From Minisyncoccota bacterium (GTDB lineage Bacteria > Patescibacteriota > Minisyncoccia > Phycocordibacterales > JABAAK01): a stretch of DNA of 64,000 bases. The DNA lies in NCBI GenBank assembly GCA_958295675.1, contig OY282360.1, positions 530,026-594,025 of the forward strand, written 5' to 3'. Under the pieces are notes generated by a model. It made no database searches, had not been told where the DNA came from, and saw only the letters and a list, made by a program, of their open reading frames with translations. Shown piece after piece: positions 37,336-62,707 of the stretch. Positions within the stretch are counted from its first letter, which is position 1; every line of letters begins with the position of its first letter. The position numbers and the translations under genes are program-made.

Positions 37336-40300
37336 TCAATGACGCGCCTGCGCCTCTAACAACTCCTGAATTTTTTGCTGAATTCGCTGTATCTCTCTTC
37401 TAAGAGATTGTATGAGTTCCTGTTGTTGCGTTTCAGTAAGCGCCTGTGCAGATGGTGATGCGTCAGATTGCACCTGAAACATGACGGTGCGGGTACGCGG
37501 ACCATAGTAGCCGCTCGCGGGTGTGATACCGCGCGCCTGTTGAAAGGCGATAAGCGCGCGGTGGGTTGCCGGTCCGAAGTAATCACTTTCATTGCCGACG
37601 GAACCGGGTCCTGTTTCAGCGACAGTATATCCGCCTTTGTTCAAAAATTGCTGAAGCGCACGCACACCGGGATCGCTCACACCAATCTCAAGGTCATATT
37701 CAGGCAGCAGCAGCGGTTCCGGTGCTAACAGAGATGAAAATCCGTCGGCGGGCAATGCTTCAACAGGAACAACGCCGGAGATGACAGGCGGTGCTGCAGA
37801 TTGCTCGGACACAGTGGGCGATTCAGGTATGCGCGGTGCGGAGACAGTCGGAGGACGGTACGAACTTCGGCTACCGCCTCCTCCGCCTCCGCTGCTGCCG
37901 CGACGGATTGAAAAAGATGACAACAACAGAGACACTGACGCGGCATTGCCGGCGACATCAATCATGGTGAGTGAACAGTCATCGTAGTTGCTGCGCGCTC
38001 CGGAGAAACGAAGGGTATGGCTCGCGGTGCCGGATCCGATAACTGATCCGGTAACCTGCAGATCATCGCAGACACCGCCTCCGCTGACAGCAAACCGTAC
38101 GGTCTCTTCAATGGTTTGGTTGTGGTTCACCGTAATAGTAACCTCCGGTCGTCGTGAACTCGGTACTGACACCGTTCTCTCAACAAATGCGGGAACGGAG
38201 GTGTCGCGAGTAACGGCGAGCGGCGCGCTATACACCGTATTGTGCGCACTGTCGCGAACTCTGGCACAAATATAACGAATGCCATCGGAAAGTGATGCAG
38301 CGGTGATAGTCGCTATATCAGTAATAGTGTACGAAAGCGTATCCGCGCATACCGAACCCGGGTTAGTGTCCGTTACCGCATAGGTAACCGTCACTCCGTC
38401 GTCCTCATTCACTGTGACGGCAGTCACAATCGGCTGCGTGTTCCGTTCCCCATCTCCCGCCTCATCAGCGTTTATATACCCGTCCGTCGCAACCCCGGCA
38501 TGCGATAAATGCGCGGTAACAGTCGGCGCGACGGTATCAACGGTAACGGTAAGAGCAGGAGACGGATCAGACAGCGGACTGCCATTAATTGACTGTTTTG
38601 CGGCTATAGTCCACGAACCGGATATACCGGCGGCGGCAATACGACTGCCCTGTGCATCCGCCGCGGTTGTGAGATCAAGAGTGATTGTATAGCTGCCGTC
38701 AGCACTGTCGGCGACAGCAGTGCCGGTAGCAGTGTAAGCGGTAGCATCAACGGTCTTCACGGCGGTAAGGGTCACCGTAGCACCGGCATTCGCGGTACCG
38801 GAGAATGAAAGTGTCGTATTCCCCGTTACAGCATCCTCCGACCCCGTATCAGACGATGTCTCAAGAGCCGGCAAAGCAGGAGCAGCCGGCTGAAACAATA
38901 GCGGATAGCGGCGTTTCAGTTCGCGCAGCGCGCCGAGAGTGTTCAGCACCCTGCCGCCGCCGACAACCTGCGCGCTTGTCAGACCGCTCGTGCCGCCGAC
39001 CGCATGTGTCGCCGCGGTCAGGGTGTTTGAACCGCTCAGCAAGATATCACGCGTCTCGGCGACGGTGAGATCCGGCTTTACCTCAAGCAGCATAGCCGCG
39101 GTGCCGGCGACCATCGGCGCGGCAACGGAGGTGCCGGAAAAAACGCGATAGTACCCGCGCAGCAGCTCCTGCTGATGTGTAAGATCAGCGCGAAGAGGAC
39201 CTTTGAAGAACACAAATTCATTATCAAATATCTTACAGTTCTCTTTTGTCAGCCCGGTGGTTGGTGAACCACTCCAATCAAATCTAAAATGAAAGTTTGA
39301 AGTCAAGTGCGCAGTACCGGACAATTCAGCGTATGAAAATGTGTGTGTTGCCGGATTATGCAGTGCAATAGGACTGGAATAGTCCGTTCCGTCACCGCTG
39401 AACGAGTATGAAAGATGATTGTACTCACCCCGACAATCATGCCGAATGGCAAGGAGTACCCGTTCACCGCGCGCGGGATCAATAAAACTAAGATCAATCG
39501 GTCCGATGGTATAGGAAGACGCGGCGGAAGCGGCAGTTTCCGAACCGGCATCCGGTATCGGCGATATATAGCGCGTACCCGAATCAGTGCCGGACGACCA
39601 CGATGTCGCGCTAACGGGGACGGCGGAACCGTCGCCCAGCCCGCTTCCCTGCTGCAATCTGGAGTATCCCGACTTATACGACGGCAATGCCACACCAACC
39701 GCCGGCGCGAGTATCTCTATATGCGGTCCGTAATTTGTGCCGCCGTACACGGCATTATTCCTGTCCACACCACCGACCGCGAGGACATGAGAGAGTCCGG
39801 TCCAGCATTCATTGCCGTCAGTATCGCTGACTGACTCGGTGTAATCAACCGGTACAACCCAGTCGCTTGTGGTACCGATCTTCCTCCCGCTGTTGCCGGC
39901 GGCGATAGTGACAATGCCGGGAAAATCACGCAACGCGGCGTAGAGCATTGCGTCAAAACCGCCCTGCTTTTTCTCTTCCGCCGTGCCGCACGATAGCGTG
40001 CTTGAGGACGAATTGTTGGGATAGGTACGCGCCCAACTGATACTGAGCACATCCGCACCGTTATGCCGCGCCGTGTTAATCATACGCACGGCATCCGCCG
40101 TATACACCTTATCAACCTTGTACGGGAATCTGCTGCTCGGCGGCGCGGCGAGCGCCATCAACCGGCTGTTCTGCGCCACACCGAACGCGCCCTTTCCGTT
40201 ATTAAAACCGCCGAGCGCGGCACCCGCCATCGCGGTGCCGTGCACGGCAAAACCGGCTTCCGGATCGTTAGTGAACACCCGCTGTGTCCGACCGTTCACC

Positions 40301-40977
40301 AACCGCGCCTCAACATTAAAACCGCCCTTCGGACACCCGCTAACAAATGCGGTATTTGTATCATCAAAACAGGATGTCGGCTGCCACAACATTCCCTGAA
40401 ATTCAGGATGTGATGTCTTGATATTCGTATCAACAACGGCAATAACAGGTGCGCTGTCAGCGCGGTATGAATCCGGCGGTATCAAACCATACGCTTCTCC
40501 GAGACCCAAAAAAGAGAACGGCCACGCGTAGGTGTTTGCAATAAGCGGATCATTTGACGGCGGTTCGGTCTGCGCGTCGTACGCGAAGTTCGGCTGCGCG
40601 TGCGCGATACCGGCAACAGCGGACACCTCAGCGGACAACGCGGCAACATCAACATGCTCATCAAACGAAAGCAGTGCGGCACCGGTATCAGTAGCAACAT
40701 CTTCCGTGCGAATATCGTCAGTATCAACGCCGTGCTCACGCAATACTTTTTCCACCTCCAGATACAATGCTTCCTTCGCGTCAATAACATGAGTACTACT
40801 AACGGAAACATCGGAATCAATCTCCTCATACACCACAATAATCTGGTTCGGCGCATACACATCAGCGGAAGAATCTTCGGAAACAGTGACTGCACCCTGC
40901 GCGGCGGCGTATGGCACCGACAAACACATACAAAAGAGTAAAAAACAGAAACTGCCGTTCTGCAACGAAATATACAT
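37336..40977 (-). CDS. subtilisin-family (S8) serine protease with C-terminal peptidoglycan-binding domain
   Basis: Signal peptide. Catalytic triad motifs VIAVVDTNI (Asp), HGTAMAGAA (His) and GTSVAAPMVAGTAA (Ser). C-terminal PG_binding_1-like LQQFLNKGGY...GPATHRALIAFQQARGI. Confidence 0.8.
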   Translation of the reverse strand: MYISLQNGSFCFLLFCMCLSVPYAAAQGAVTVSEDSSADVYAPNQIIVVYEEIDSDVSVSSTHVIDAKEALYLEVEKVLREHGVDTDDIRTEDVATDTGAALLSFDEHVDVAALSAEVSAVAGIAHAQPNFAYDAQTEPPSNDPLIANTYAWPFSFLGLGEAYGLIPPDSYRADSAPVIAVVDTNIKTSHPEFQGMLWQPTSCFDDTNTAFVSGCPKGGFNVEARLVNGRTQRVFTNDPEAGFAVHGTAMAGAALGGFNNGKGAFGVAQNSRLMALAAPPSSRFPYKVDKVYTADAVRMINTARHNGADVLSISWARTYPNNSSSSTLSCGTAEEKKQGGFDAMLYAALRDFPGIVTIAAGNSGRKIGTTSDWVVPVDYTESVSDTDGNECWTGLSHVLAVGGVDRNNAVYGGTNYGPHIEILAPAVGVALPSYKSGYSRLQQGSGLGDGSAVPVSATSWSSGTDSGTRYISPIPDAGSETAASAASSYTIGPIDLSFIDPARGERVLLAIRHDCRGEYNHLSYSFSGDGTDYSSPIALHNPATHTFSYAELSGTAHLTSNFHFRFDWSGSPTTGLTKENCKIFDNEFVFFKGPLRADLTHQQELLRGYYRVFSGTSVAAPMVAGTAAMLLEVKPDLTVAETRDILLSGSNTLTAATHAVGGTSGLTSAQVVGGGRVLNTLGALRELKRRYPLLFQPAAPALPALETSSDTGSEDAVTGNTTLSFSGTANAGATVTLTAVKTVDATAYTATGTAVADSADGSYTITLDLTTAADAQGSRIAAAGISGSWTIAAKQSINGSPLSDPSPALTVTVDTVAPTVTAHLSHAGVATDGYINADEAGDGERNTQPIVTAVTVNEDDGVTVTYAVTDTNPGSVCADTLSYTITDIATITAASLSDGIRYICARVRDSAHNTVYSAPLAVTRDTSVPAFVERTVSVPSSRRPEVTITVNHNQTIEETVRFAVSGGGVCDDLQVTGSVIGSGTASHTLRFSGARSNYDDCSLTMIDVAGNAASVSLLLSSFSIRRGSSGGGGGGSRSSYRPPTVSAPRIPESPTVSEQSAAPPVISGVVPVEALPADGFSSLLAPEPLLLPEYDLEIGVSDPGVRALQQFLNKGGYTVAETGPGSVGNESDYFGPATHRALIAFQQARGITPASGYYGPRTRTVMFQVQSDASPSAQALTETQQQELIQSLRREIQRIQQKIQELLEAQARH

Positions 40978-40989: not shown

Positions 40990-42297
40990 TCACGCGATCC
41001 GGGCAATAGTGTTCAAAAACGAATCAGTCACCGTCTCCGGCACTTCAGTACTCCCGACATAGCACACCGCCATAGTATCTGTAACAAAAATATCCTCCGC
41101 GACCCGGCGTACATCCGCAGGCGTTACCGCCCTGATATGCTTCTCGTATTCCTCATCGGACTCCACGGCACCCGTTTGCGCGTACAGCACCATATTCCGT
41201 CCGGCAATACCCTGTGTGCTCTCCTGTTGCACAGCACGGACACCGAGAATGTACTCCCGCGCCTTCCGTAATTCATCATCAGACACCGTATCCCGCAGTA
41301 CAGCGGCGCACTCATCGGCAACGGCTCCCATCACCTCTTCGGTCCGTTTCCCGTTAATGCCCGTATAGATTGAAAAACTGCCGTAATGCGCGTTCATATC
41401 AGCGGACGCATTGATGGTGTAGCAAGCACCGAGATGTTCGCGCACCCGCAGAAACAAACGGGAACTCATAGAACCGCCGAGTACCGTACCAAGCAACTGA
41501 AGCGCATGACGGTCATCGCTGCCGCATGACGGCGCGTACCCGCCGATAACAATATGCGACTGCTCCAAATCAGAACGCACCACATGTACATGCTTCTGTT
41601 TTACACCGACAGCGGATACCGCGACCTGCTCGGTATGCCCGCCGACAGGTGCTGATCGGTACATGCGCTCCAATGCGGCGAACACTTCTTCAGAATCAAA
41701 CTTACCGGCGACAGAAATAATGATATTGCCGGAGACATAATGTTTCCGTAAAAACTGCACGAAGTCATCGCGGGAAAACGACCGGACTGAATCAGCAGTG
41801 CCGAGAATATCATGCTCGGCGGCAGTTCCATGAAACAGTGATTTTTCAACTTCATTACCGGCTTTTGCGGCGGGATCATCCTCGTACATTGCTATCTCCT
41901 CAACGATAACACTCTTTTCTTTTTCAAGTTCACCGGCGGGAAACAGAGAACGCAAAAAAATATCAGAAGTGATATCCATCATATCGCCGATTCTCTCCGC
42001 CCTGCCGAACAGATAGTAGCCGGTATATTCCCTTGAGGTATACGCGTTCCCGACGACACCGGACTCGTCCATGCGCACCAGCAGCTGCGTATAGTCGGGA
42101 TAGGTTTCCGTCCCCTTGAAACACATATGTTCAAAAAAATGAGCCAAACCATGCTCATGCGCCTCCTCATGATTCGCGCCGATATTCACGCCGACCAGCA
42201 CGCACGCCGTCTTTGCGTGCGCATTAGGATCAAAAATAACAGTAATCCCGTTGCTCATCGTGCGTACCTCAGCCATACACCTACCACTATACATCAA
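40990..42297 (-). CDS. M16 (pitrilysin/insulinase) family zinc peptidase
   Basis: Inverted zinc motif HFFEHMCFKG with the downstream glutamate region. Start may be M8 (MAEVRTMSNG). Confidence 0.75.
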   Translation of the reverse strand: MMYSGRCMAEVRTMSNGITVIFDPNAHAKTACVLVGVNIGANHEEAHEHGLAHFFEHMCFKGTETYPDYTQLLVRMDESGVVGNAYTSREYTGYYLFGRAERIGDMMDITSDIFLRSLFPAGELEKEKSVIVEEIAMYEDDPAAKAGNEVEKSLFHGTAAEHDILGTADSVRSFSRDDFVQFLRKHYVSGNIIISVAGKFDSEEVFAALERMYRSAPVGGHTEQVAVSAVGVKQKHVHVVRSDLEQSHIVIGGYAPSCGSDDRHALQLLGTVLGGSMSSRLFLRVREHLGACYTINASADMNAHYGSFSIYTGINGKRTEEVMGAVADECAAVLRDTVSDDELRKAREYILGVRAVQQESTQGIAGRNMVLYAQTGAVESDEEYEKHIRAVTPADVRRVAEDIFVTDTMAVCYVGSTEVPETVTDSFLNTIARIA

Positions 42298-42459
42298 AAC
42301 GCAGTACCGGTAATCACATTTTTTCTCAACACCAAAAAGTACACCATCCTGTTCTACAACATACCAAAAAAACAGTAATATAACTACAAAACAACAGCAA
42401 AATATGCTACACTACCCGCCAGAACCCTGTTCTTTCCACACACAACGAGGACGTTTCTC

Positions 42460-45024
42460 ATGCACAGACGAGCAGCAGGCATCCTGCCTGTTTTCCTGCT
42501 GACCGCGACATTCGCGGTCGGCGAAACACAGACGGTACCGCTGTTCGCTCCCGCGAATGACGGTATTCGGCAGGGATTCACGCGAGTCGTGAATCTCGCA
42601 CACCGAGACGGTACGGTCACAATCCGTGCCCGTGACGATGCCGGTGTCCTGCACCGGAGTTCGTTCCGCATCGCTGCATCCGCGGTGTACCACTTCAACT
42701 CAGACGACCTGGAGAACGGCAATGCCGTGAAAGGTATCACCGGTATCGGCAACGGCACCGGTGACTGGCAGCTCGCACTGGACAGTGATCTGCCGATCGC
42801 GGTCACCGCGTACCTGCGTACCGATGACGGCTTTCTCACCGCGATGAACAACACCGTGGCACGAGGCCCTGACGGGGTCCACCGGGTCATGACCTTCAAT
42901 CCCGCCTCAAACGTGAACCAGGAGAGTATGCTCCGGCTGATCAATCGGTCGGGGCGGACCATCACGGTAACCGTGCGGGGTACTGACGATCAGGGTGCAG
43001 CGGGAGACCGTCCCGTGACGGTATCCCTCCGCCCCAACGGTGCACGTACCCTGAGCGCGAAAGACCTGGAGAACGGAGGACTCGGCGACGGAAGCGGTAA
43101 GTGGCGATTGCTCGTCACGGCACCGGAATCCATTGTCGTCATGTCCCTCATGAGCACCAAGGTCGGCTACCTCACGAACCTCTCATCGGCACCGGAAGGC
43201 ACCACGATTCCGCTGTTCACCGCGGTCTCGCGGTTCAGGCAGAGTTTCGCGCGGATCATCAACCGCTCACCGGAAGCGGGCACCGTGACGGTACGCGCCA
43301 GGGATGACTCGGGCACCGAACGGGGCTCGTTCACCATCCCCATCGGCGCCAATCAGGTGCGGCACTTCAACTCCGATGATCTGGAAAACGGCAGTGTCGC
43401 CAAAGGTGTCACCGGTGTCGGCGACGGTACCGGTCACTGGCGGCTGACGGTCTCCGGCGATCTGGACCTACAGGTACTCGCCTACATGCGCACCGATGAC
43501 GGTTTTCTCACCGCACTCCACGATATCGTGGGTGATGCGGGACGGACGCACCAGGTACCCATACTCAACCCGGGCAGTAACACCGACCGGGAGAGCAGTT
43601 TGCGAATAGTCAACACCACGGGTGCCGTGACCACGGTCACCGTCCGCGGCTTTGACGATAGAGGCAGAGAAGGCGACAGCACAGTCCGCATCACCCTGCG
43701 GGGCAATGAAGTGAAAACCTTCACCGCCAAACGGCTGGAGGATCTGGGACTCGGCGACGGCAGCGGTAAGTGGCGGCTCATGGTCACCGCGACCAATCCC
43801 GTCATCCTGCTGTCCCTCATACAGACAACAACCGGGCACCTCACCAACCTCTCCTACACACCGGCAGGCATTCGGGTCATCGCCAGACCGGTGGAAGCAT
43901 CGTTCACCTACGAGGAGGACGACGGCATCCCGTTCGGCATCCGCTTTGACGCCACCGCGTCCAAAGGAGACCTCACGGACTACGCCTGGGACTTCGGGGA
44001 GAACAGTCTGCGGGTTGACACCACGACCGGCACCGGTCCGACCCCCCTGTTTGTCTACGACAGTACCTGGTTCTTCGGGCGTACCCGGGGTGACCACCTC
44101 GGCTACGAGGGTCGCTACCCCGCCACGACGACCTACCCGGTCACCCTGACCGTTACCGACCGCTACGGCGCCACAGACACCCATGCCGAGACAATCACGG
44201 TAACCAACACCCTGTCCTTCGCCGGCATGCGCGACCTCATCGGTCGTATCACCGACGGCGGGCACCGCGGGAAACTCATTATCTCGGAGTTGGGTATCGG
44301 CGAGGCGTTCGAGGGCAGCCATGCCCAACAGACGGTGTATGTGAACATGAAGGAGGAGGGAGTACCCGCGGCGAGTATCGTGGTGCACGGTCCGGGGATC
44401 ACGAACCCGCGCGCACTCGGTTCGTTCGGCATCCTGACCCACCCGGACAACGCCGCCCTGCGCGCCGAGACCCTGGTGGTGAATCTGTCGGTACTGCCCG
44501 CCTTTAACCGATTGAGTGTACCGCACATCCCTGCGCACAATATCATATGGGTGGCGAGTGCGGGCAACCTTGATCCCGACATCGCGGCGTGCGGTCCGAC
44601 CGACCCGCGCATCCGTGATTTCTGGCGGTCTGACCATCCGTACTTCTCCTGTGAGGGGAGGGATCGCAGTCCCGTCTATATCGACACCATGGGCGCAGTC
44701 AGAACCGGCAAGGTGCTGATGGCGACCGCGGCGGTGCGCAGACAGGACGGCACGGTCGTGCCGGATACCGGTGTCATGATGTGCGGCGACACCAGGGAGC
44801 AGTGCTTCGCGGTGGAGCAGTCGAGGATTACCTCGGCATCGGCACCGGCACTCAGCGCGGCGGTGTTCCACCTCTTCCAGACCTACGAGGATGCGGAGGA
44901 TGTGGTGCACGCCCTGAAGTCGTGCGCGACGGATATCGGGGAGCCCGGGGTTGACCGTGAATTCGGTCAGGGGCTCGTTGACTTCCGCTGCGCTGCGGCG
45001 ATGCTGCCGGTTGTTGATCGGTAA
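42460..45024 (+). CDS. secreted ~100-aa-repeat protein with degenerate S8-peptidase-like C-terminal domain (copy 1)
   Basis: Signal peptide. Four tandem ~100-aa repeats (...NSDDLENGxxxKGxTGxGxGTGxWxL...). C-terminal block HNIIWVASAGN ... SRITSASAPALSAAVFHL echoes the subtilase oxyanion/Ser motifs. Confidence 0.6.
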   Translation: MHRRAAGILPVFLLTATFAVGETQTVPLFAPANDGIRQGFTRVVNLAHRDGTVTIRARDDAGVLHRSSFRIAASAVYHFNSDDLENGNAVKGITGIGNGTGDWQLALDSDLPIAVTAYLRTDDGFLTAMNNTVARGPDGVHRVMTFNPASNVNQESMLRLINRSGRTITVTVRGTDDQGAAGDRPVTVSLRPNGARTLSAKDLENGGLGDGSGKWRLLVTAPESIVVMSLMSTKVGYLTNLSSAPEGTTIPLFTAVSRFRQSFARIINRSPEAGTVTVRARDDSGTERGSFTIPIGANQVRHFNSDDLENGSVAKGVTGVGDGTGHWRLTVSGDLDLQVLAYMRTDDGFLTALHDIVGDAGRTHQVPILNPGSNTDRESSLRIVNTTGAVTTVTVRGFDDRGREGDSTVRITLRGNEVKTFTAKRLEDLGLGDGSGKWRLMVTATNPVILLSLIQTTTGHLTNLSYTPAGIRVIARPVEASFTYEEDDGIPFGIRFDATASKGDLTDYAWDFGENSLRVDTTTGTGPTPLFVYDSTWFFGRTRGDHLGYEGRYPATTTYPVTLTVTDRYGATDTHAETITVTNTLSFAGMRDLIGRITDGGHRGKLIISELGIGEAFEGSHAQQTVYVNMKEEGVPAASIVVHGPGITNPRALGSFGILTHPDNAALRAETLVVNLSVLPAFNRLSVPHIPAHNIIWVASAGNLDPDIAACGPTDPRIRDFWRSDHPYFSCEGRDRSPVYIDTMGAVRTGKVLMATAAVRRQDGTVVPDTGVMMCGDTREQCFAVEQSRITSASAPALSAAVFHLFQTYEDAEDVVHALKSCATDIGEPGVDREFGQGLVDFRCAAAMLPVVDR

Positions 45025-45051
45025 CTTCTTTTTTTCGCCTACAAGGCAGTA

Positions 45052-45080
45052 CCCGCGCGGTTATCCGCGCGGGTTTTTTT
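45052..45080 (+). terminator. rho-independent terminator
   Basis: CCCGCGCGG-ttat-CCGCGCGGG followed by T7. Confidence 0.85.
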
Positions 45081-45179
45081 ATTTGCTCTTATATACAGCG
45101 TTGCTAATGTGTTATGGAGTATATGAACAACTGGCAGTGGTACTTTTGTTTCGCTTGAGGGACTGCTGTATGTCCTGAT

Positions 45180-45500
45180 TCTCGTTTGCGTAAATGATGT
45201 GCCACAGGTTTTTGTACTCGCTGCTGGTGACCAGGTGCTCCAGGGACAAGTTCCACAACTCGCACTGGTCGGACTACTTGCCCAGGTACCGTTGGTGCAG
45301 CTGTAGGTGGCGGATCTCTACGGAGAACCGGTACTGTCCCTCGCGGTATCGCTGCTAGCGGTTGTGGATGCGACTCTACCGCTACAGGTCCTACCGCTCA
45401 CGGTCCAGGAGACATCTTTCGGGGGGCAAGGCCGAATTTTGCAGGATCCCGTCCTTGTACTTGTTGACCAGGTACCGTCGTCGGTGCATCTGTAGGTGGC
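45180..45500 (-). pseudogene. decayed fragment of a Cys-repeat surface-protein gene (paralogue of 48152..52222)
   Basis: 45270-45480 aligns at roughly 80-85% identity, with indels, to 48885-49060. Reverse-strand translation gives ...TYRCTDDGTWSTS...VSWTVSGRTCSGRVASTTASSDTARDSTG, which is one Cys-repeat unit. Confidence 0.55.
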
Positions 45501-45566
45501 GAAACACAGACGGTACCGCTGTTCGCTCCCGCGAATGACGGTATCCGGCAGGGATTCACGCGAGTC

Positions 45567-48011
45567 GTGAATCTCGCACACCGAGACGGTACGGTCACGA
45601 TCCGTGCCCGTGACGATGCCGGTGTCCTGCGCCGGAGTTCGTTCCGCATCGCTGCATCCGCGGTGTACCACTTCAACTCAGACGACCTGGAGAACGGCAA
45701 TGCCGTGAAAGGTATCACCGGTATCGGCAACGGCACCGGTGACTGGCAGCTCGCACTGGACAGTGATCTGCCGATCGCGGTCACCGCGTACCTGCGTACC
45801 GATGACGGCTTTCTCACCGCGATGAACAACACCGTGGCACGAGGCCCTGACGGGGTCCACCGGGTCATGACCTTCAATCCCGCCTCAAACGTGAACCAGG
45901 AGAGTATGCTCCGGCTGATCAATCGGTCGGGGCGGACCATCACGGTAACCGTGCGGGGTACTGACGATCAGGGTGCAGCGGGAGACCGTCCCGTGACGGT
46001 ATCCCTCCGCCCCAACGGTGCACGTACCCTGAGCGCGAAAGACCTGGAGAACGGAGGACTCGGCGACGGAAGCGGTAAGTGGCGATTGCTCGTCACGGCA
46101 CCGGAATCCATTGTCGTCATGTCCCTCATGAGCACCAAGGTCGGCTACCTCACGAACCTCTCATCGGCACCGGAAGGCACCACGATTCCGCTGTTCACCG
46201 CGGTCTCGCGGTTCAGGCAGAGTTTCGCGCGGATCATCAACCGCTCACCGGAAGCGGGCACCGTGACGGTACGCGCCAGGGATGACTCGGGCACCGAACG
46301 GGGCTCGTTCACCATCCCCATCGGCGCCAATCAGGTGCGGCACTTCAACTCCGATGATCTGGAAAACGGCAGTGTCGCCAAAGGTGTCACCGGTGTCGGC
46401 GACGGTACCGGTCACTGGCGGCTGACGGTCTCCGGCGATCTGGACCTACAGGTACTCGCCTACATGCGCACCGATGACGGTTTTCTCACCGCACTCCACG
46501 ATATCGTGGGTGATGCGGGACGGACGCACCAGGTACCCATACTCAACCCGGGCAGTAACACCGACCGGGAGAGCAGTTTGCGAATAGTCAACACCACGGG
46601 TGCCGTGACCACGGTCACCGTCCGCGGCTTTGACGATAGAGGCAGAGAAGGCGACAGCACAGTCCGCATCACCCTGCGGGGCAATGAAGTGAAAACCTTC
46701 ACCGCCAAACGGCTGGAGGATCTGGGACTCGGCGACGGCAGCGGTAAGTGGCGGCTCATGGTCACCGCGACCAATCCCGTCATCCTGCTGTCCCTCATAC
46801 AGACAACAACCGGGCACCTCACCAACCTCTCCTACACACCGGCAGGCATTCGGGTCATCGCCAGACCGGTGGAAGCATTGTTCACCTACGAGGAGGACGA
46901 CGGCATCCCGTTCGGCATCCGCTTTGACGCCACCGCGTCCAAAGGAGACCTCACGGACTACGCCTGGGACTTCGGGGAGAACAGTCTGCGGGTTGACACC
47001 ACGACCGGCACCGGTCCGACCCCCCTGTTTGTCTACGACAGTACCTGGTTCTTCGGGCGTACCCGGGGCGCTCGCCACGGCTACGAGGGTCGCTACCCCG
47101 CCACAACGACCTACCCGGTCACCCTGACCGTTACCGACCGCTACGGCGCGGAAGCCACGCACACCGAGCCGATCACGGTAACCAACACCCTGTCCTTCGC
47201 CGGCATGCGCGACCTCATCGGTCGTATCACTGACGATGACGAACACCGCTACAAACTGGTGATCTCGGAGTTGGCTGATGGTGAAGCGTTTGAGGGCAGC
47301 CATGCCCAGCGGACGGTGTATGTGAACATGAAAGAAGAGGGCGTGCCGAAAGCGAACATCCATGTGCACGGTCCGGGGATAACGGACTGGCGCGTAGTGG
47401 ACGGTGCGTACGGCTTCCTGACCCACCCGGACAACGCCGCTCTGCGCGCCGAGACCCTGGTGGTGAACCGGTCGGTACTCCCCGCCTTCAATGAGCTTGC
47501 TGCGGAACACATCGCCGCGCACAATATCATATTTGTGGCGAGTGCCGGTAATGTGAACCACCATAGCGTGAATCAGTGCGATCCGCCGGACAATCCGGAT
47601 CGGGACCTGTGGCGTCCTGACCATTCGTACTTCACCTGTGATGATGGCGGTCGGCGGTGGATGTATACCGCAACGATGGACGCGGTCAGGACCGGTAAGG
47701 TGCTGATGGCGACCGCGGCGGTGCGCAGACAGGACGGCACGGTCGTGCCGGATACCGGTGTCATGATGTGCGGCGACACCAGGGAGCAGTGCTTCGCGGT
47801 GGAGCAGTCGAGGATTACCTCGGCATCGGCACCGGCACTCAGCGCGGCGGTGTTCCACCTCTTCCAGACCTACGAGGATGCGGAGGATGTGGTGCACGCC
47901 CTGAAGTCGTGCGCGACGGATATCGGGGAGCCCGGGGTTGACCGTGAATTCGGTCAGGGGCTCGTTGACTTCCGCTGCGCTGCGGCGATGCTGCCGGTTG
48001 TTGATCGGTAA
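45567..48011 (+). CDS. copy 2 of the repeat/S8-like protein, N-terminally truncated (possible pseudogene)
   Basis: >95% nt identity to copy 1 from GETQTVPLF onward. No signal peptide and no Shine-Dalgarno. The first in-frame start is GTG. The upstream in-frame sequence derives from the Cys-repeat fragment and opens with a stop at 45465. Confidence 0.5.
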   Translation: MNLAHRDGTVTIRARDDAGVLRRSSFRIAASAVYHFNSDDLENGNAVKGITGIGNGTGDWQLALDSDLPIAVTAYLRTDDGFLTAMNNTVARGPDGVHRVMTFNPASNVNQESMLRLINRSGRTITVTVRGTDDQGAAGDRPVTVSLRPNGARTLSAKDLENGGLGDGSGKWRLLVTAPESIVVMSLMSTKVGYLTNLSSAPEGTTIPLFTAVSRFRQSFARIINRSPEAGTVTVRARDDSGTERGSFTIPIGANQVRHFNSDDLENGSVAKGVTGVGDGTGHWRLTVSGDLDLQVLAYMRTDDGFLTALHDIVGDAGRTHQVPILNPGSNTDRESSLRIVNTTGAVTTVTVRGFDDRGREGDSTVRITLRGNEVKTFTAKRLEDLGLGDGSGKWRLMVTATNPVILLSLIQTTTGHLTNLSYTPAGIRVIARPVEALFTYEEDDGIPFGIRFDATASKGDLTDYAWDFGENSLRVDTTTGTGPTPLFVYDSTWFFGRTRGARHGYEGRYPATTTYPVTLTVTDRYGAEATHTEPITVTNTLSFAGMRDLIGRITDDDEHRYKLVISELADGEAFEGSHAQRTVYVNMKEEGVPKANIHVHGPGITDWRVVDGAYGFLTHPDNAALRAETLVVNRSVLPAFNELAAEHIAAHNIIFVASAGNVNHHSVNQCDPPDNPDRDLWRPDHSYFTCDDGGRRWMYTATMDAVRTGKVLMATAAVRRQDGTVVPDTGVMMCGDTREQCFAVEQSRITSASAPALSAAVFHLFQTYEDAEDVVHALKSCATDIGEPGVDREFGQGLVDFRCAAAMLPVVDR

Positions 48012-48038
48012 CCTCTTTTTTTCGCCTACAAGGCAGTA

Positions 48039-48067
48039 CCCGCGCGGTTATCCGCGCGGGTTTTTTT
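48039..48067 (+). terminator. rho-independent terminator (duplicate of 45052..45080)
   Basis: Same hairpin followed by T7. Confidence 0.85.
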
Positions 48068-48151
48068 ACTACCTGCGTTAGTTATATACACAAGCAATAT
48101 GCTACACACCCTAAATCTGACACACTGCGTTCGCCGGTCTTCCAATCATCA

Positions 48152-51100
48152 TTAGGATGTCGGACACCCGCTCGTGGTGCAGGCATTACCGGAGTGTTGG
48201 TAGGTACCGGCAGTGGCAGCATCAGTGGTACTTGTGGTGCACTGACAGGGACCCTGATTGCAAGTACCGATACTACTTCCTCCGGTCCAGGTTTGGTTGT
48301 TACAGCTGTAGCTTCTGGAACCCTGATAATCTCCGTCAGTATCTCGGGCAACAACAGTTCCATTCGTGGTTCTTGCGCTCAAAGTAGTGCTGCACGATCC
48401 CCATGTGACAGATCTCGCTGAGCATCCGGGTGGTTTCGCCACAGAGCAGGTGTCAATGGTTACGCCACCGTAGGAACACCGCCATTTGTAGTGCGTAGTC
48501 GTAGTCATCGCATAGCCACCACTAGCGTACCCAGGGCTGCAGGTATTTCTGGTTGTGCCGCATCCGGGTGGTTTCTTCTTGGAGCAGCGAGGAGAGTTGT
48601 AGCCTTTAGGAGATTTGCTGTCTCCGCTCGTTCCATCACACTGCCATCTGTAGTGCGTGTCCGTGTCAGTATACGTCTTGTCATTGTGTGTACCGTGTAA
48701 GCACCCGTTCCGCTCGCTGTTATTGCATACACCGTTCACCGGACACGCTATTTCCCTTTGACATGGTCCACCAGGAACACGCCAAGTGGGTCCTTGGTAG
48801 TATAGCCGGACACCGTTAAGAGCGGGATCGCCGGTGCCTACTGTACACACACACGCACCAGGACCGCATTTCGCCCCCGTATTCGGACTACTTGCCCAGT
48901 CCCCGTCGGTGCAGCTGTAGGTGGCGAATCCCCGATTATGACCGGTACTGTCTATCGCGGTACCGCTGCTAGCGGTTGTGGATGCGAGGGTACTGTTGCA
49001 GGTGTATTCAATGTTCTCGTCCTGATCATCGGGCACTGTCCAGGAGACAGTGTTCAAGGGGCAACTTATAGGTTGGCAGCTCGCAGCGGTCGGACCACTC
49101 CATGTTTCGTCGTTACAACTGTAGGTCGCGCTGCCGGTGTAGCCAGCAGATTTAGTATTGGCAACTACCTTACTTCCGCTTGCACTTGCTGTTCCTGTGC
49201 TTCCACCACATTGAGTTCCCCAAGTTACATCTTTATCCTCACATCCCGGTTTCTTTATGTCACAATACGCTATCTCAGTGTCGGGCTTTCCTATGCAACA
49301 CCAACGGTCAAGCGTAGTGGTATCTTGACATCTCGTGCCGGTGTTTGATTTGCGCCCGACTAAGCATTCATCTACTTCAGCATTGTTGCATACAGGTGTT
49401 TGTGGACAATTATTCGCCTCGTTGCAGGCACCGCTGCCGTCAGACCAGGTGCCGGCGTTCGTAGCATCGGTTTTTGATGTAGTGCAGTTGCAGGTTTTTG
49501 TCGGACAGTTATTCGCCGTGACGGTGCAGGCACCGCTGCCGTCAGACAAGGTGCCTTTGTTCGCGGCATCGGTTTTTGATGCGGTGCAGACACAAGGAAC
49601 AGGAGTGCATCCACTACCACAACACTGTGATTGGGTGCTTGAACCTGAGCAGGTGCCGCAGGTTGACTCGGTTACGGTTTTACTTCTTGATCTGCTTTGG
49701 GAGCCATTTGAACATGTACTCCAATCACTCCAAGGTCCCCATTGACAATTTGTCGCCGGTTTCGTGCCGGTCGTTGATCGTGAACCGCAGGTTCTGGACT
49801 GGGTGAATCTCTTGCCGCTACAGACCGTGTTTCGTGCCGGTGACCATGTCCCACTTTGGGGTTTTGTCCCGGTCGTCAACCGACTTGTTGCACAGTTATT
49901 ACACTCAGTGTTGCAGGTTCTGAACTGGGTGAATCTCGTGCCGCTACAGACCGTGTTTCGTGCCGGTGACCAGGAACCGCATTTAGGGCTCTTCGGACAG
50001 TTATTTGCCGAGACGGTGCAGGTATTGCCGGTGGTACTGCAAGTACCGGCGTTCGTAGCGTCTGTTTTTGATGTAGTGCAGTTGCAGGTGCCGCACGGTT
50101 TTTCCTTTTCGCAGACAGGAGAGTTTTTTCCGCCATTCCGTCCGTCGCAGCGCCATTTGTAGTGCGTGGTCGTGTCAGCCACCGCGGAGTCATTGGCATC
50201 ATTGTAGAGCGTGCCGGACGAGCACCTGTTCTGCCTGCTGGTATCGCATACGCCGTCTTGCAGACACCCACTCGTGGTGCAGGCATTCGTGCTGTCAGCA
50301 TCATCCCATGAGCCATTGTCGTTACATTTGTAAAATCCGCCACCACCCGTTGATCCATCAGTGTCCAATAGATTAGCGTATGCACCGGAAGGTGTAATTG
50401 AGCGGGAAAATCTGCAAATTCTGTTGTTGTCTTCACTCCATGTGACTATATCGGCGGGACAGGATGTGGATGAGCAAGTCGCACCGGTTCCGCTTAACCA
50501 TATTGAGTCATGCATATTGTCACTCCAATGTCTCCAGAAAATCCAAGAAGCATCGTATCTACTAAACATGGTTCTCCAGGTACCATTAACACATCTGTAG
50601 GCGGCGACACCGATTGTTGGTTTGGTGGCATCCCTCGCGACGCTGCCGCCACCATGTCGTGTTGTGGTTCGGGTGCCGGTGCAGGTGTGACTGCCTACTG
50701 TCCAATTGACCGTACCACCGGCACATGTTCTGTCGCACAATGCGAAAGATGGCTCGTCGCTCCAGGTGCCATTGGTACAGAGGTACTTCGCACTGCCGCG
50801 TGATGTTCCTTCGGTACTCCGTATGAAGACCTCTCCGCCGGAAGGTGCCATAGGTCGGGACGCTGTGCAAGTCCTGCCGTTCTTGGTCCAGCTGACTGTA
50901 TCAGCGGCGCAGGATGTCGTCGCACTTGTGCACCACGCGAACAGCGGGTTGCTCAAGGTACCATCATTGCAGTCGTAAATGGCTCTGCCGCGTGTCGTTC
51001 CAGTCGTGTCCCACACGGTGGTTGGATTTTCACCTATATCGGCTTCAGGAGTTACTTCTGGCAAGGAGCCCGAACAGGTCTTGCCGTTCACGGTCCATCT

Positions 51101-52222
51101 GACAGTACGACCGGCGCAGGATCTCTTGCACCATGTATGAGGTGTGGCACGGGTACCGGCGGTTGTGCTGTCGGTTGCGGACGGGGTGCAATTACAGGGT
51201 GGATCTCCATATCCGCAACTCATGCTAGTTGCGATCCAGTCGCCGTTGTTACAGCTATAGGTCGCGCTACCGGTTGACGGTCCGGTGCTATCAGTTGCAG
51301 TATCGCTGCTACCGGAGTTTGTCTCGTCTCGGGAACCGGTGCAGTCGTGATTGTCCACGCTCCAATCAACACTACCGCCTGAACACTTGAGAGGAGGAAG
51401 AGTTGTAGATTCGCAACTTGTGTTAGTCGGTTCGGTCCAGGCACCGTTGTTGCAGCTATAGGTCGCGCTACCGGTTGACGGTCCGGTGCTATCAGTTGCA
51501 GTATCGCTGCTACCGGAGTTTGTCTCGTCTCGGGAACCGGTGCAGGTGTGACTGCCTACTGTCCAGGTGACCTCATCGTCTTCTTGGCAGTGGGGAGGAT
51601 CGTCTGCACATGATGCGCTCGTTGGTTCTCCCCATGTCCTGTCATTATTACAGTGATAGGTCGCGCTGCCGGTGGGCGGTCTGTTGCTATCAATTGCAGT
51701 ATCGCTACTGCCGACCACTGTTGTGGTTCGGGAACCGGTGCAGGTCTTGTTGTTCACAGTCCAGCTGACACTTCCGCCGGAGCAGGATGGAACGGTAGCA
51801 GCAACCACCGGCACCACGATACCGCATGAGGTACTTTGTGTCCCTTTCGTCACCGTCACATAGTACGGTGAGTTGTACGGGTTGGCGATGTCTCCTGCGT
51901 TAATGGACAGGGTATCTGAGGTCATTGCGGTCGTTTCCTCACGCAGTATTCTGCTCTGCGTGTCAAACTTCCAGCGGTAGGTATAGTCACCGGCAGCGGA
52001 GAAGTTATCCGTGGTCACCGTTAAGGTGAACGACTGTGCCGTTGTCGGCGATGCGGGTGAGACCGACACTGCACAGGAAGGGACGGTCTGAATGGTCGCA
52101 CAGTCCAGCGACCCGTCATTGTTGACACCGCGGACATACTCTCCCGTGCCGCATACTTGGTTCACTCCCGCTTTCTGAACACTGGCACAGGTAACCTGTC
52201 TGACCCCGTTGACCGTGGTCAC
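48152..52222 (-). CDS. giant Cys-rich multi-repeat surface protein (1356 aa)
   Basis: At least 10 copies of a ~60-aa 4-Cys unit (C..VSWTV..TC[TS]GSR...SSDTATDSTG...ATYSCNNG.W...C). THYKWRCDG-type repeats. A TSP1-like WGPWSDWSTCS motif. Nearly identical internal 160-bp DNA duplications. First in-frame start is GTG with no signal peptide. Confidence 0.6.
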   Translation of the reverse strand: MTTVNGVRQVTCASVQKAGVNQVCGTGEYVRGVNNDGSLDCATIQTVPSCAVSVSPASPTTAQSFTLTVTTDNFSAAGDYTYRWKFDTQSRILREETTAMTSDTLSINAGDIANPYNSPYYVTVTKGTQSTSCGIVVPVVAATVPSCSGGSVSWTVNNKTCTGSRTTTVVGSSDTAIDSNRPPTGSATYHCNNDRTWGEPTSASCADDPPHCQEDDEVTWTVGSHTCTGSRDETNSGSSDTATDSTGPSTGSATYSCNNGAWTEPTNTSCESTTLPPLKCSGGSVDWSVDNHDCTGSRDETNSGSSDTATDSTGPSTGSATYSCNNGDWIATSMSCGYGDPPCNCTPSATDSTTAGTRATPHTWCKRSCAGRTVRWTVNGKTCSGSLPEVTPEADIGENPTTVWDTTGTTRGRAIYDCNDGTLSNPLFAWCTSATTSCAADTVSWTKNGRTCTASRPMAPSGGEVFIRSTEGTSRGSAKYLCTNGTWSDEPSFALCDRTCAGGTVNWTVGSHTCTGTRTTTRHGGGSVARDATKPTIGVAAYRCVNGTWRTMFSRYDASWIFWRHWSDNMHDSIWLSGTGATCSSTSCPADIVTWSEDNNRICRFSRSITPSGAYANLLDTDGSTGGGGFYKCNDNGSWDDADSTNACTTSGCLQDGVCDTSRQNRCSSGTLYNDANDSAVADTTTHYKWRCDGRNGGKNSPVCEKEKPCGTCNCTTSKTDATNAGTCSTTGNTCTVSANNCPKSPKCGSWSPARNTVCSGTRFTQFRTCNTECNNCATSRLTTGTKPQSGTWSPARNTVCSGKRFTQSRTCGSRSTTGTKPATNCQWGPWSDWSTCSNGSQSRSRSKTVTESTCGTCSGSSTQSQCCGSGCTPVPCVCTASKTDAANKGTLSDGSGACTVTANNCPTKTCNCTTSKTDATNAGTWSDGSGACNEANNCPQTPVCNNAEVDECLVGRKSNTGTRCQDTTTLDRWCCIGKPDTEIAYCDIKKPGCEDKDVTWGTQCGGSTGTASASGSKVVANTKSAGYTGSATYSCNDETWSGPTAASCQPISCPLNTVSWTVPDDQDENIEYTCNSTLASTTASSGTAIDSTGHNRGFATYSCTDGDWASSPNTGAKCGPGACVCTVGTGDPALNGVRLYYQGPTWRVPGGPCQREIACPVNGVCNNSERNGCLHGTHNDKTYTDTDTHYRWQCDGTSGDSKSPKGYNSPRCSKKKPPGCGTTRNTCSPGYASGGYAMTTTTHYKWRCSYGGVTIDTCSVAKPPGCSARSVTWGSCSTTLSARTTNGTVVARDTDGDYQGSRSYSCNNQTWTGGSSIGTCNQGPCQCTTSTTDAATAGTYQHSGNACTTSGCPTS

Positions 52223-52292
52223 CTGCAGAAACTGTCCCGCAGGACAGTTCGTGGATTCCAGCAGTGCCTGCTCCGCGGAAATACATTCCAGT

Positions 52293-52424
52293 CCGTTGTC
52301 AGTTAAGCTGAGGATTCATTATCCGCGCAGGCGATTTGTGCGTTTGTCATGCCGTATGACACGAACAGCATGCTGAGTATACCTATAGCAAGTACAACTT
52401 GCAGGATTTTGTGGGTAATGTGCA
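52293..52424 (-). pseudogene. orphan signal-peptide ORF, out of frame with the giant gene
   Basis: MHITHKILQVVLAIGILSMLFVSYGMTNAQIACADNESSA* lies 70 nt upstream of the giant gene's GTG, in a different frame. Confidence 0.45.
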
Positions 52425-52482
52425 TATATACTTGTAGTGTATATCGCAGGGAAATAGAGTTTTTTTGGTGGTGGAAAAACAC

Positions 52483-53499
52483 CTACATAACATCCTGCCC
52501 TTGAAGGATGTCTTTTAGGGTGTCTTCCGCTTTCTCTGTATCTGTTTTTGTACGGTTACCATCCTCTTTCTGTGGAAAGTGACGGTGCCACAGCAGAAGG
52601 AGTGACGGCGCGAAAAAGAGCGATGAGTAGGTACCGGCAGCGACACCGACAAACAGTGCGACACCGAACCACTGCGTGACAGGCACCAGGGCTATAAGAA
52701 GGGCGAGAGGAATGACCGTTGAGACGGAAGTATAGAGTGATCTTCGGACACTGCTCCGCACGCCGTAATCAACCACTGTTCCGAAATTCTCTTTGTGTTT
52801 TTTTACCATATTCGTCTTAAGCCGGTCGCGGATACGGTCAAATATGACAATAGTATCGTTTATAGAATAGCCGAGCGTGGCAAGTAGAGCGGTTACAAAC
52901 AGCGCGTCAACGGATGCGGAGGTGAACGGCGCAAGCAGGGCAAAGATGCCGAGCGGCGCGGCGACATCATGCAGCAATGCCGCTATTGAGACAACACCGT
53001 ATTTCCAGGAAGCGATAGGCCGCGACACGCCTTTAAACACAAATGAAATATAGGCAATGATGATAATGGTTGCGATGATGAGGGCAAGAAGCGCTTTGCG
53101 TACCAGTTCCTGACTGATAGAGGGAGAGAACGATTGATACTCAGTGATGGTATGTGCGCCGACGGTATCAGTGATATGTGTGAGTAAACCTTGATATTCC
53201 TCGTCACTGAGCGCGCGCGAAGTGAATGACCATTCCGTTTCTGAAATCTGCTGCGGTGTGATATCATACGGAAACTCTGCAAATGCGGTATGCATACTCT
53301 GCGTAGATTGTTCACTCTGAAAATCAACCTGCAGGTGCGCGGTGCCGCTGAACTCCGGCGCGATATTCGGTGTGATGACGAAAACACTCAGCAGAAAAAC
53401 GACAATGAGCGCGACACCTATAACCGCGTGTTTTTCCGCGTGTCTGCTTATCATATGTTGAAATCTGTTTTGTATCATATATTTTAGTGAATATACCAC
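52483..53499 (-). CDS. secF: protein translocase subunit SecF
   Basis: Six-TM SecF topology with periplasmic loop. Immediately downstream of secD. Confidence 0.8.
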   Translation of the reverse strand: MVYSLKYMIQNRFQHMISRHAEKHAVIGVALIVVFLLSVFVITPNIAPEFSGTAHLQVDFQSEQSTQSMHTAFAEFPYDITPQQISETEWSFTSRALSDEEYQGLLTHITDTVGAHTITEYQSFSPSISQELVRKALLALIIATIIIIAYISFVFKGVSRPIASWKYGVVSIAALLHDVAAPLGIFALLAPFTSASVDALFVTALLATLGYSINDTIVIFDRIRDRLKTNMVKKHKENFGTVVDYGVRSSVRRSLYTSVSTVIPLALLIALVPVTQWFGVALFVGVAAGTYSSLFFAPSLLLLWHRHFPQKEDGNRTKTDTEKAEDTLKDILQGQDVM

Positions 53500-62512: not shown

Positions 62513-62707
62513 CAAAATAGTGGTGTGATTATATTTTTACTATTGCAATACGCATGGGCAATCCGCTACAGAAACGATTATTACATTTCTCACGAAAAGA
62601 ATCGACTAATTAGTACTCCTCTGCTAAACGCATCTCTGCGCGTACACATAGAGCCTATCAACCTGATCATCTCTCAGGGGTCTCAAATGATACCTAATCT
62701 CAAGGTG

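Follow-up and report, generated by a model that had tools for sequence, protein, structure and literature searches.

Apparent recent cross-phylum exchange of a subtilase-like gene family present as a tandem pair in a probable small Patescibacteria chromosome

Introduction

Genomic islands and singly transferred genes with donors in other phyla have been described in Patescibacteria (Gios et al. 2025, PMC12455944), and a conjugation-type type IV secretion system has been described in these bacteria (PMC12102498). Here we analyze a tandem pair of genes, an intact copy of 854 amino acids (aa; copy 1) and a neighboring copy that has lost its 5′ end (copy 2), in a 64,000-nt stretch of contig OY282360.1 (positions 530,026 to 594,025, assembly GCA_958295675.1), hereafter the window. 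We consider it fairly probable that the pair consists of foreign genes of one family in a 10.2-kb insertion of a Patescibacteria chromosome, that these genes have been exchanged repeatedly, and that they encode a probably active variant of the subtilases.

Several known systems resemble parts of this locus. Subtilases (MEROPS S8, PF00082) carry a catalytic triad in the order Asp-His-Ser, and in subtilisin BPN' the acid and the histidine are 32 residues apart. The sedolisins (S53) share the subtilisin fold and have a Ser-Glu-Asp triad, with Glu in place of His and Asp as the oxyanion residue. The Neisseria pilE/pilS loci and the Mycoplasma genitalium MgPa repeats are loci of variation between an expression site and silent cassettes.

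Results

Near-identity to Pseudomonadales genes and foreign composition

A protein search recovered 2,376 relatives, and the full-length ones are 45-100% identical and have only weak PKD matches in Pfam. The close relatives are in two chromosome-level metagenome-assembled genomes (MAGs) named "uncultured Pseudomonadales bacterium", OY282460.1 (4.33 Mb, ~65% GC) and OY282447.1 (5.07 Mb). Distant relatives occur in MAGs of other Gammaproteobacteria, some with sponge-derived-looking names. Family copies often occur in arrays: OY282460.1 has six or more of them, and OY282447.1 has five or more together with fragments. Copy 1 is 98.5% identical at the nucleotide level to positions 10001-12565 of locus L001 in OY282460.1 (paralog L001A), with 39 differing columns in 2,565 nt and zero differences across 43985-44912 (928 nt). 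Copy 2 is 96-97% identical to the paralogs L001B and L002a. Over their final ~120 nt, the window copies are just 90-93% identical to any sampled donor copy. Homology to every donor locus is confined to the open reading frame (ORF), from 42459 to the stop codon or ~20 nt past it.

The composition of the genes is that of the donor copies and is foreign to the host. Both copies have a GC content of 0.62-0.63 and a GC content at third codon positions (GC3) of 0.76 (0.628 and 0.764 for copy 1), and the donor copies have a GC3 of 0.75-0.77; the window without the island has a GC content of 0.474 and its housekeeping genes a GC3 of 0.41-0.66. Recent horizontal transfer is expected to leave such a composition, together with near-identity to a distant genome whose core genes are far removed, and copy 1 has this relation to OY282460.1. 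The near-identity to Pseudomonadales DNA suggests that genes moved from one phylum to another very recently. We suggest that the family genes were acquired from a large-genome, Pseudomonadales-type gammaproteobacterium. The genes next to other family members (tripartite ATP-independent periplasmic and major facilitator superfamily (MFS) transporters, purine-biosynthesis genes) are typical of larger-genome bacteria.

Every paralog in OY282460.1 is preceded by a GC-rich leader of ~120 nt (…GCGCGACCAGCCGCTTCGGTATGATGCGCGGCTGTCGAAGG…), which is absent from the window and different in OY282447.1. Such a leader could be regulatory and common to the paralogs, or it could belong to the unit homogenized within OY282460.1. 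Upstream comparison found no homology to this conserved leader of the donors in 42298-42459 of the window, and donor homology begins at 42459. Small ORFs between the donor copies were uninformative as candidate immunity or inhibitor partners (weak DUF7931, alpha/beta hydrolase, and restriction-modification genes).

Apparent insertion into a probable Patescibacteria chromosome

A contig of 724,510 bp encodes the SecD protein of the window at 100% identity, and the next relatives of this SecD (67-76%) are mostly on contigs of 0.63-0.85 Mb. The best named relatives are Candidatus Kaiserbacteria (67-69%), followed by Campbellbacteria and Parcubacteria (~50%). None of the 120 matches listed in this search is on the 4.33- or 5.07-Mb donor contigs. 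Housekeeping genes (topA, relA/spoT, pheT, tsaD, a prfA-like gene, tsf, rodA, secD, and secF) are spread throughout the window, and the 16S and 23S rRNA genes are ~25 kb apart and so unlinked, which fits a Patescibacteria genome. We infer from these features that the window belongs to a small chromosome of ~0.72 Mb from a Kaiserbacteria-like member of the Patescibacteria (candidate phyla radiation, CPR).

The contig with the 76%-identical SecD, L013, encodes in order an FG-GAP/PG_binding protein, a 265-aa protein, rodA, secD, secF, an M16 peptidase, and rnhB. Proteins of the window are collinear with these at 44-75% identity (64-75% aa for rodA-secD-secF-M16). The gap between secF and the M16 gene is 13 nt in L013 and 10.2 kb (42298-52482) in the window, where it holds copy 1, a remnant of a gene with Cys-rich repeats, copy 2, and a giant Cys-repeat ORF (Table 1). 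The block is absent from the corresponding site of this one relative, and by this comparison it is an insertion into the conserved rodA-secD-secF-M16 gene order.

A preliminary description of the locus had grouped the pair with the M16 gene and a neighboring S8 protease gene in a surface proteolysis or adhesion island. We did not find support for such an island: the secF-M16 adjacency in L013 makes the M16 gene part of conserved synteny and not evidence of proteolysis, and nothing ties the neighboring S8 gene to the pair functionally.

That S8 gene (37336-40977, minus strand), between the M16 and 16S rRNA genes, encodes a 1,213-aa protein with Peptidase_S8, Big_13, and PG_binding_1 domains. 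Since the gene after M16 in L013 is rnhB, it may be a second lineage-specific insertion. A gene for a VirD4/TrwB-like type IV coupling protein (28604-30619, minus strand) is 12 kb from the island and may bear on DNA exchange. An imperfect direct repeat of ~24 nt brackets the block of copies 1 and 2, with 22 matches over 26 columns, four of them gapped. Its pattern is …CAA..AATATGCTACAC.ACCC; candidate origins are a scar left by insertion or the duplication of a promoter element.

Layout and mosaic identity of the two copies

The ORF list places the 854-aa ORF of copy 1 and an 814-aa ORF of copy 2 on the plus strand, followed by a 1,356-aa ORF on the minus strand. With blastn, 42516-45081 and 45495-48068 align as direct repeats at 94.6% nucleotide identity over 2,585 columns (E=0); with tblastn, residues 21-854 of copy 1 match 45498-48008 at 92.6% aa identity. 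The copies are thus adjacent and direct, with homology beyond chance, as in a tandem segmental duplication. The preliminary description was right about the direct repeats; its figure of more than 95% identity was somewhat too high, and the identity is very uneven along the length. The repeat takes in the 3′ untranslated region and the terminator and stops just past the terminator T-run (45081/48068). As that description had noted, each copy has the same terminator: the stem-loops at 45051-45074 and 48038-48061 are identical, with a 10-bp stem and a T-run after each. It had also recognized the signal peptide and weak Shine-Dalgarno sequence of copy 1, which starts with MHRRAAGILPVFLLTATFAVGETQ; MHRRAAGILPVFLLTATFA followed by VGETQ reads as a Sec signal peptide, and a Shine-Dalgarno-like GAGGA is 8 nt 5′ of the ATG. 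The same N-terminus is found in the donor copies and in P0127 (857 aa), a third family gene located elsewhere on the window contig and having a signal peptide as in copy 1.

Base by base, copies 1 and 2 are 100% identical over runs of 1,247 nt (42654-43900) and 316 nt (44710-45025). They differ in 147 columns, indels included, and nearly all of these are within 44091-44709. Here, between the identical runs, is a cassette of ~620 nt with 63-90% identity between the copies and with indels. Synonymous divergence (dS) between the copies rises from 0.005 in the N-terminal part to 0.43 in the cassette; in the flanks it is 0.005 within the genome versus 0.054 to the donors. The cassettes have different closest relatives. 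That of copy 1 (type A) is within the 928-nt run shared with L001A. For that of copy 2 (type B), protein identity to L001B, L002a, and P0002, all Pseudomonadales paralogs, is 91-96%, and DNA identity to L001B and L002a ranges over 87-100% when taken in 150-nt blocks. Sliding windows show that L001A and L001B differ exactly in the manner of copies 1 and 2. Across the first 1.5 kb, identity is 97-100% throughout the closest subgroup, whose members then split by cassette type.

One recent duplication cannot yield this mosaic of identity with dS values of 0.005 and 0.43, and each cassette type matches a different donor paralog, so the cassette types are older than the window pair. We read the pair as old paralogy combined with gene conversion or recombination and not as a single recent duplication. 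By the same reading, the flanks are homogenized within each genome and separate segments have separate histories; flank identity that is higher within the genome than to any donor shows a pattern of intragenomic conversion. The family genes are under purifying selection, with ratios of nonsynonymous to synonymous divergence (dN/dS) of 0.05-0.45 throughout. A dN/dS of 0.36-0.45 in the variable cassette does not support positive or diversifying selection there.

The OY282460.1 locus L002 has two paralogs (13885-16507 and 17823-20454) that match at 100% for ~2 kb before differing in this C-terminal cassette region too. Concerted evolution therefore appears to be at work in the Pseudomonadales genome as well.

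Copy 2 and the Cys-repeat genes

Copy 2 encodes no signal peptide, and there are zero internal stops in its 837 codons. Its frame has a TGA at 45463-45465, and homology to copy 1 begins at codon 20-21. No ATG, GTG, or TTG is in this frame between the TGA and the GTG at 45567, and the public gene call (P0122) is likewise 814 aa. The internal GTG start and the lack of a signal peptide reported in the preliminary description therefore hold. An overlooked upstream start, which that description named as something that would overturn it, was looked for and rejected: besides the in-frame TGA and the lack of a canonical start, no signal-peptide-like ORF is upstream in frame. Copy 2 has the type-B cassette, and its protein is 100% identical to that of P0127 over aa 530-770. 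With an intact type-B gene thus present on the contig, the most likely status of copy 2 is that of an unexpressed relic too young to have gained stop codons.

The spacer between the copies encodes on its minus strand (45063-45500) a fragment with Cys-repeat motifs (ATYRC…, SATYSC…) and an in-frame stop. The fragment is 39-50% identical to the 1,356-aa protein (tblastn E 4e-12), and 121 nt of the spacer are 82% identical to 48883-49003, which bears out the earlier view that a decayed piece of a Cys-repeat gene precedes copy 2. At the junction the ATYRC motif abuts family-gene codon 20-21 with at most 3 shared nt (GGC). Past the end of the repeat, the DNA of the two Cys sequences is unalignable except for the one 121-nt match of a repeat unit. 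The suggestion that a unit of repeat-protein gene plus Cys-repeat gene had been duplicated is thus not supported, since the repeat ends after the terminator, the Cys DNA beyond it does not align, and the cassettes differ (dS 0.43).

The 1,356-aa Cys-repeat protein has no Pfam family, and tblastn found no match to it in any of 12 related loci, the donor loci included. Directly upstream of its ORF and out of frame with the body is a 40-codon ORF (52303-52425, minus strand) with a typical signal peptide (MHITHKILQVVLAIGILSMLFVSYGMTNAQIACADNESSA, ending at a stop). The giant gene looks damaged, with a frameshift or assembly indel directly after the signal peptide. The protein contains motifs like thrombospondin type 1 (WGPWSDWSTCS…, WSPARNTVCSG…RFTQ.RTC) and several internal repeat families. 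Two other arrangements were rejected. Insertion of copy 2 into a once-continuous Cys-repeat gene does not fit the 83 nt of AT-rich non-coding DNA and the giant ORF's own stop, which separate 48068 from the ORF. A unit of family gene plus Cys gene shared with relatives does not fit the lack of tblastn matches in the 12 related loci.

Predicted protein architecture and active site

The preliminary description's four beta-rich repeats and S8-like C-terminal domain are supported by structure prediction and fold search. AlphaFold2 (AF2) models residues 20-475 as four beta-sandwich domains, with a predicted local distance difference test (pLDDT) score of 94.8. In a fold search with single domains, the sole good PDB match is the Anabaena sensory rhodopsin transducer (ASRT) 2ii7 (prob 1.0); its chains fit single repeats with TMt 0.69-0.78 and a root-mean-square deviation of 3.0-4.6 Å over ~97-105 columns. 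The window protein has no significant sequence match to PF07100. About 445 N-terminal residues of this kind also precede other C-terminal domains (LRR, reprolysin-like metalloprotease, trypsin-like, FGE-sulfatase, and Calx-beta). We propose that the four-beta-sandwich module, which is conserved and widely reused, is a binding or stalk module. The PKD-like domain that follows scores 19-21 bits with PKD_4, below the gathering score of 27, and 44 of 45 family members have this match. A family profile matches PKD domains of collagenases and proteases in PDB (E 4e-4 to 1e-3).

The C-terminal domain (AF2 model of residues 580-854, pLDDT 86.8, pTM 0.87) is predicted to have a subtilisin-type alpha/beta fold. 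Of 116 PDB matches from Foldseek at E<=1e-3, the 50 listed consist entirely of subtilases or subtilisin-fold proteases (E ~2e-7, prob 1.0, TM ~0.5, 12-16% identity), including PvSUB1, subtilisins BPN' and Carlsberg, and a lanthipeptide protease. Scoring with the Peptidase_S8 profile, proposed earlier as a check, left both window copies short of the Pfam threshold. PF00082 has a gathering score of 21.8 bits; copy 1 has no match at E<=0.01 and copy 2 reaches 18.6 bits in the C-terminal Ser region only. There are weak matches in 15 of the 45 family members (best E 7e-4), and the distant relative P0160 passes the Pfam S8 threshold at 24.8 bits. An exhaustive profile search with the domain found 159 cluster representatives at E<=1e-3 among 1.84 billion, including ~500-aa lipoprotein-like proteins and proteins with fn3 and dockerin domains. 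The domain and its relatives are a small clade that is barely detected by Pfam.

An earlier proposal to inspect the domain for Asp, His, and Ser is borne out for two of these residues: His621 and Ser792 are present, and the acid is Glu610 and not Asp. The acid-His-Ser order is retained. Glu610, His621, and Ser792 are each conserved in 44 of 45 family members and the oxyanion Asn703 in 45 of 45, and four Cys are invariant, probably forming two disulfides. In nearly all of the ~30%-identical distant relatives that were aligned the Glu610 position is Asp, and His621, Asn703, and Ser792 are nearly invariant. Alignment with hhalign to subtilisin BPN' (E 0.076) places N703 on N155 and S792 on S221, and the blocks VVNLS, AGN (with the oxyanion Asn), TSxSxP (with the Ser), and FGxGxVD align to subtilisin residues 119-271. 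Only the C-terminal two-thirds are aligned, and the equivalences of Glu610 to Asp32 and of His621 to His64 rest on the family alignment and secondary-structure position. In the AF2 model Glu610 follows a beta-strand, His621 opens a helix, Asn703 follows a strand, and Thr-Ser792 opens a helix, which is the pattern of subtilisin at D32, H64, N155, and S221.

The conservation of these four residues at canonical positions favors an active enzyme over a pseudo-protease. We predict a compact subtilase-fold peptidase with a Glu-His-Ser triad that is probably active. Identification as a sedolisin was rejected because His621 and Asn703 are retained and Glu is at the Asp32 position. No I9-type propeptide was detected in the window protein. 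The variable cassette spans the putative catalytic Glu and His and the oxyanion Asn, and the least conserved stretch in the whole family, aa 701-740, comes directly after this Asn. By analogy, the most divergent part of the cassette, the loop after Asn, would be the wall of the S1 pocket of subtilisin, and the paralogs may therefore differ in substrate specificity.

Among the relatives, P0157-P0228 (alignment A4) include proteins of ~500 aa with lipoprotein-type signal peptides, the canonical Asp, and C-termini (…RF, …RW, or …SF) that resemble outer-membrane beta-barrel signals. Others have fn3 and dockerin domains.

Other features of the window

The coordinates of the features are collected in Table 1. 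Elsewhere in the window, pheT (phenylalanine-tRNA ligase beta subunit; 15007-17391, minus strand) has an apparent NlpC/P60-like segment (RipC/invasion-associated endopeptidase) at aa ~354-439. Two tandem tRNA-Leu(CAA) genes (14758-14843 and 14884-14969, minus strand) have 40 nt between them.

Table 1. Positions of features in the window and, where a locus is named, at donor loci
Feature	Position	Strand	Basis or remark
16S rRNA gene	35627-37089		
M16 peptidase gene, left border of insertion	40990-42297	-	Pfam Peptidase_M16 and M16_C; 64% aa to the L013 gene directly after secF, collinear
AT-rich intergenic region upstream of copy 1	42298-42459	.	GAGGA at 42447-42451
Left direct repeat, imperfect, ~24 nt, ACAGCAAAATATGCTACACTACCC	42394-42417	+	Local alignment
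Copy 1 (W1)	42460-45024	+	ORF list, translation, composition
Sec-type signal peptide, aa 1-19, MHRRAAGILPVFLLTATFA	42460-42516	+	Read from translation
Four tandem beta-sandwich domains (predicted)	42523-43848	+	aa ~22-128, 141-240, 249-352, 361-463; AF2
PKD-like domain	43891-44208	+	aa ~478-583; PKD_4
Variable cassette type A, copy 1	44091-44709	+	Inside the 928-nt run identical to L001A
Divergent subtilase-fold domain (predicted)	44212-45021	+	aa 585-854; AF2, Foldseek
Putative catalytic residues	E610 44287-44289; H621 44320-44322; oxyanion N703 44566-44568; S792 44833-44835		
Rho-independent terminator, copy 1	45051-45081	+	Without counterpart at donor loci
3′ remnant of second Cys-repeat gene	45180-45497	-	tblastn and translation; in-frame stop; 5′ side cut by copy 2
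Copy 2 (W2), without codons 1-20	45498-48011	+	Longest ORF 45567-48011, 814 aa, GTG start
Variable cassette type B, copy 2	47069-47696	+	Sliding-window and protein comparison
Terminator, copy 2	48038-48068	+	Stem-loop same as that of copy 1
Right direct repeat, imperfect, ACACAAGCAATATGCTACACACCC	48088-48111	+	Local alignment
Cys-repeat giant ORF, 1,356 aa	48152-52222	-	GC3 0.55, like the rest of the window
secF, right border of 10.2-kb insertion	52483-53499	-	Pfam and synteny with L013
5S rRNA gene	62403-62511		
23S rRNA gene	62589-64000	-	Group I intron 63571-63791, exactly at Rfam gathering score
GC-rich leader at donor loci	L001 9880-10000, 15365-15485; L002 9880-10000, 13764-13884, 17702-17822; L005 9880-10000		

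Discussion

Proposed history

After acquisition, homologous recombination with donor-type DNA and between the copies would have produced the identical flanks and the two ~620-nt cassettes. In an earlier arrangement, copy 1 and its terminator may have been followed by a complete, oppositely oriented Cys-repeat gene and then by an intergenic promoter and a complete copy 2. A single deletion from inside the Cys gene to codon 20 of copy 2 would then have removed the promoter and ~20 codons and fused the leftover 3′ Cys fragment to the shortened copy 2. One such deletion would be the most economical cause of both the head loss of copy 2 and the loss of the Cys gene. The product of the intact gene is predicted to be a Sec-exported modular enzyme with four beta-sandwiches, a PKD-like domain, and then a divergent subtilase-fold serine peptidase.

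Weighing the explanations

The arrangement might instead be native, with a unit of repeat-protein gene and Cys-repeat gene recently duplicated in tandem and then decayed, as part of an island for surface proteolysis or adhesion that also takes in the S8 and M16 genes. Direct repeats, identical terminators, and a Cys remnant between the copies fit this arrangement, and the M16 gene and the 1,213-aa Peptidase_S8 and PG_binding gene do adjoin it. We nevertheless consider it quite unlikely: the repeat stops at the terminator, the Cys sequences (39-50% aa) cannot be aligned past one repeat unit, each cassette is closer to a gene in another organism's genome than to the other cassette (dS 0.43), a GC3 of 0.76 is foreign to the window, and M16 adjoins secF in L013, the one relative contig examined. 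The flanks raise another explanation, in which copy 2 is a promoterless silent cassette that serves as a gene-conversion donor and switches the variable cassette of copy 1. As in such systems, a full-length gene is beside a 5′-truncated, startless copy, and the variable segment of 620 nt is enclosed by flanks of 1,247 and 316 nt that are identical in the two; copy 2 is stop-free, and the flank dS is 0.005 within the genome versus 0.054 to donors. There is only one silent copy, however, and with the intact same-cassette gene P0127 present, switching gains nothing obvious. The cassette dN/dS of 0.38 gives no sign of diversifying selection, and the truncation also destroyed a neighboring gene and looks accidental. 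Silent-cassette switching is accordingly an improbable account of the pair.

An error of assembly or binning, in which reads from an abundant multi-copy Pseudomonadales gene were threaded into the contig or one copy was doubled, is a very improbable source of the locus. It would explain DNA near-identical to the genome of another organism, possibly from the same kind of sample, and it would be in keeping with the lack of an independent occurrence of either junction in JGI metagenomes. A chimeric join should bring donor flanks, but the foreign segments are bounded by start and stop codons and have AT-rich leaders, a Shine-Dalgarno-like GAGGA, and two identical terminators, none of which are at the donor loci. 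The window copies differ from every sampled donor copy in 39-92 columns, and their last 120 nt are only 90-93% identical. The 620-nt cassette separates the two copies, so they are neither a collapsed nor a doubled repeat, and the contig has a third gene call for the family (P0127). Names in the style of hifiasm-meta primary contigs (for example, s891.ptg001067l) are found on other ENA contigs with family members, and if the window was also assembled from HiFi data, reads would span the 5.6-kb pair.

Our preferred reading, foreign family genes exchanged repeatedly into a Patescibacteria chromosome, has several points against it. The taxonomic assignment is based on one protein search, rRNA organization, and contig sizes and not on a phylogeny, and only one relative contig, L013, provides the comparison for the insertion. 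Neither junction sequence has a match in the JGI metagenomes. Homology to the donors sets in exactly 1 nt ahead of the ATG and runs out ~20 nt beyond the stop codon, a boundary oddly tidy for illegitimate integration that this reading does not account for. Copy 2 is stop-free over 837 codons, so that its upkeep for some function is possible. As for the enzyme, Glu at the Asp32 position is atypical for S8, and a literature search on Ser-His-Glu subtilases found nothing relevant.

Significance

By itself, a tandem pair in which one copy has lost its head is an ordinary outcome of genome decay. This case stands out for genes nearly identical to those of one particular large-genome bacterium, for their presence in several copies, and for their mosaic structure. 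The pair has the appearance of cross-phylum cargo that was exchanged recently and more than once in an ultra-small genome, and it encodes a new subtilase variant. If confirmed, the mosaic pattern points to ongoing cross-phylum recombination and not to one ancient transfer, the conserved Glu in place of the catalytic Asp raises the question of Ser-His-Glu catalysis in a subtilisin fold, and the four-beta-sandwich module may be a general targeting or anchoring device.

More speculatively, the Patescibacteria cell would be an episymbiont or close contact of the OY282460.1 lineage that repeatedly recombines DNA of its partner and keeps several surface-protease copies with partner-identical cassettes, copy 2 being a recombination reservoir. 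We regard this as doubtful. The hosts of most Patescibacteria are unknown, and the 98.5-100% identical DNA shared with a 4.3-Mb Pseudomonadales genome would, if confirmed, give a testable host or partner hypothesis. Were the episymbiont reading true, shared near-identical genes would be a direct genomic marker tying an uncultured CPR bacterium to a bacterial host, and the case would be one of a parasite copying the secreted or surface toolkit of its host.

Comparison with known systems

Single N-terminal repeats of the window protein are predicted to have an ASRT-like fold, since their models superpose on 2ii7, and they differ from ASRT (PF07100) in that four domains occur in tandem in a secreted protein. 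DUF5719 is matched weakly by 10 of the 45 family members, and a literature search on DUF5719 found nothing relevant. With the subtilases, the C-terminal 270 aa share the predicted subtilisin alpha/beta fold and the His, Asn, and Ser. The differences are Glu for the catalytic Asp in this clade (distant relatives keep Asp), an acid-His spacing of 11 residues, four invariant Cys, and fusion of the domain behind four beta-sandwiches and a PKD-like domain. Unlike in the sedolisins, His and the oxyanion Asn are kept here and Glu is at the position of Asp32. By analogy with pilE/pilS and MgPa, a full-length gene is beside a 5′-truncated, promoterless copy with identical flanks around a variable segment, but here the truncated copy is single and an intact gene with the same cassette is elsewhere.

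Like the horizontally transferred genes described in Patescibacteria (PMC12455944), the pair is a compositionally foreign element in an island within conserved synteny. It differs from them in its 98.5% identity to the putative donor lineage, with a 928-nt identical run, and in the presence of at least three copies, whose mosaic structure implies repeated recombination and not one old event.

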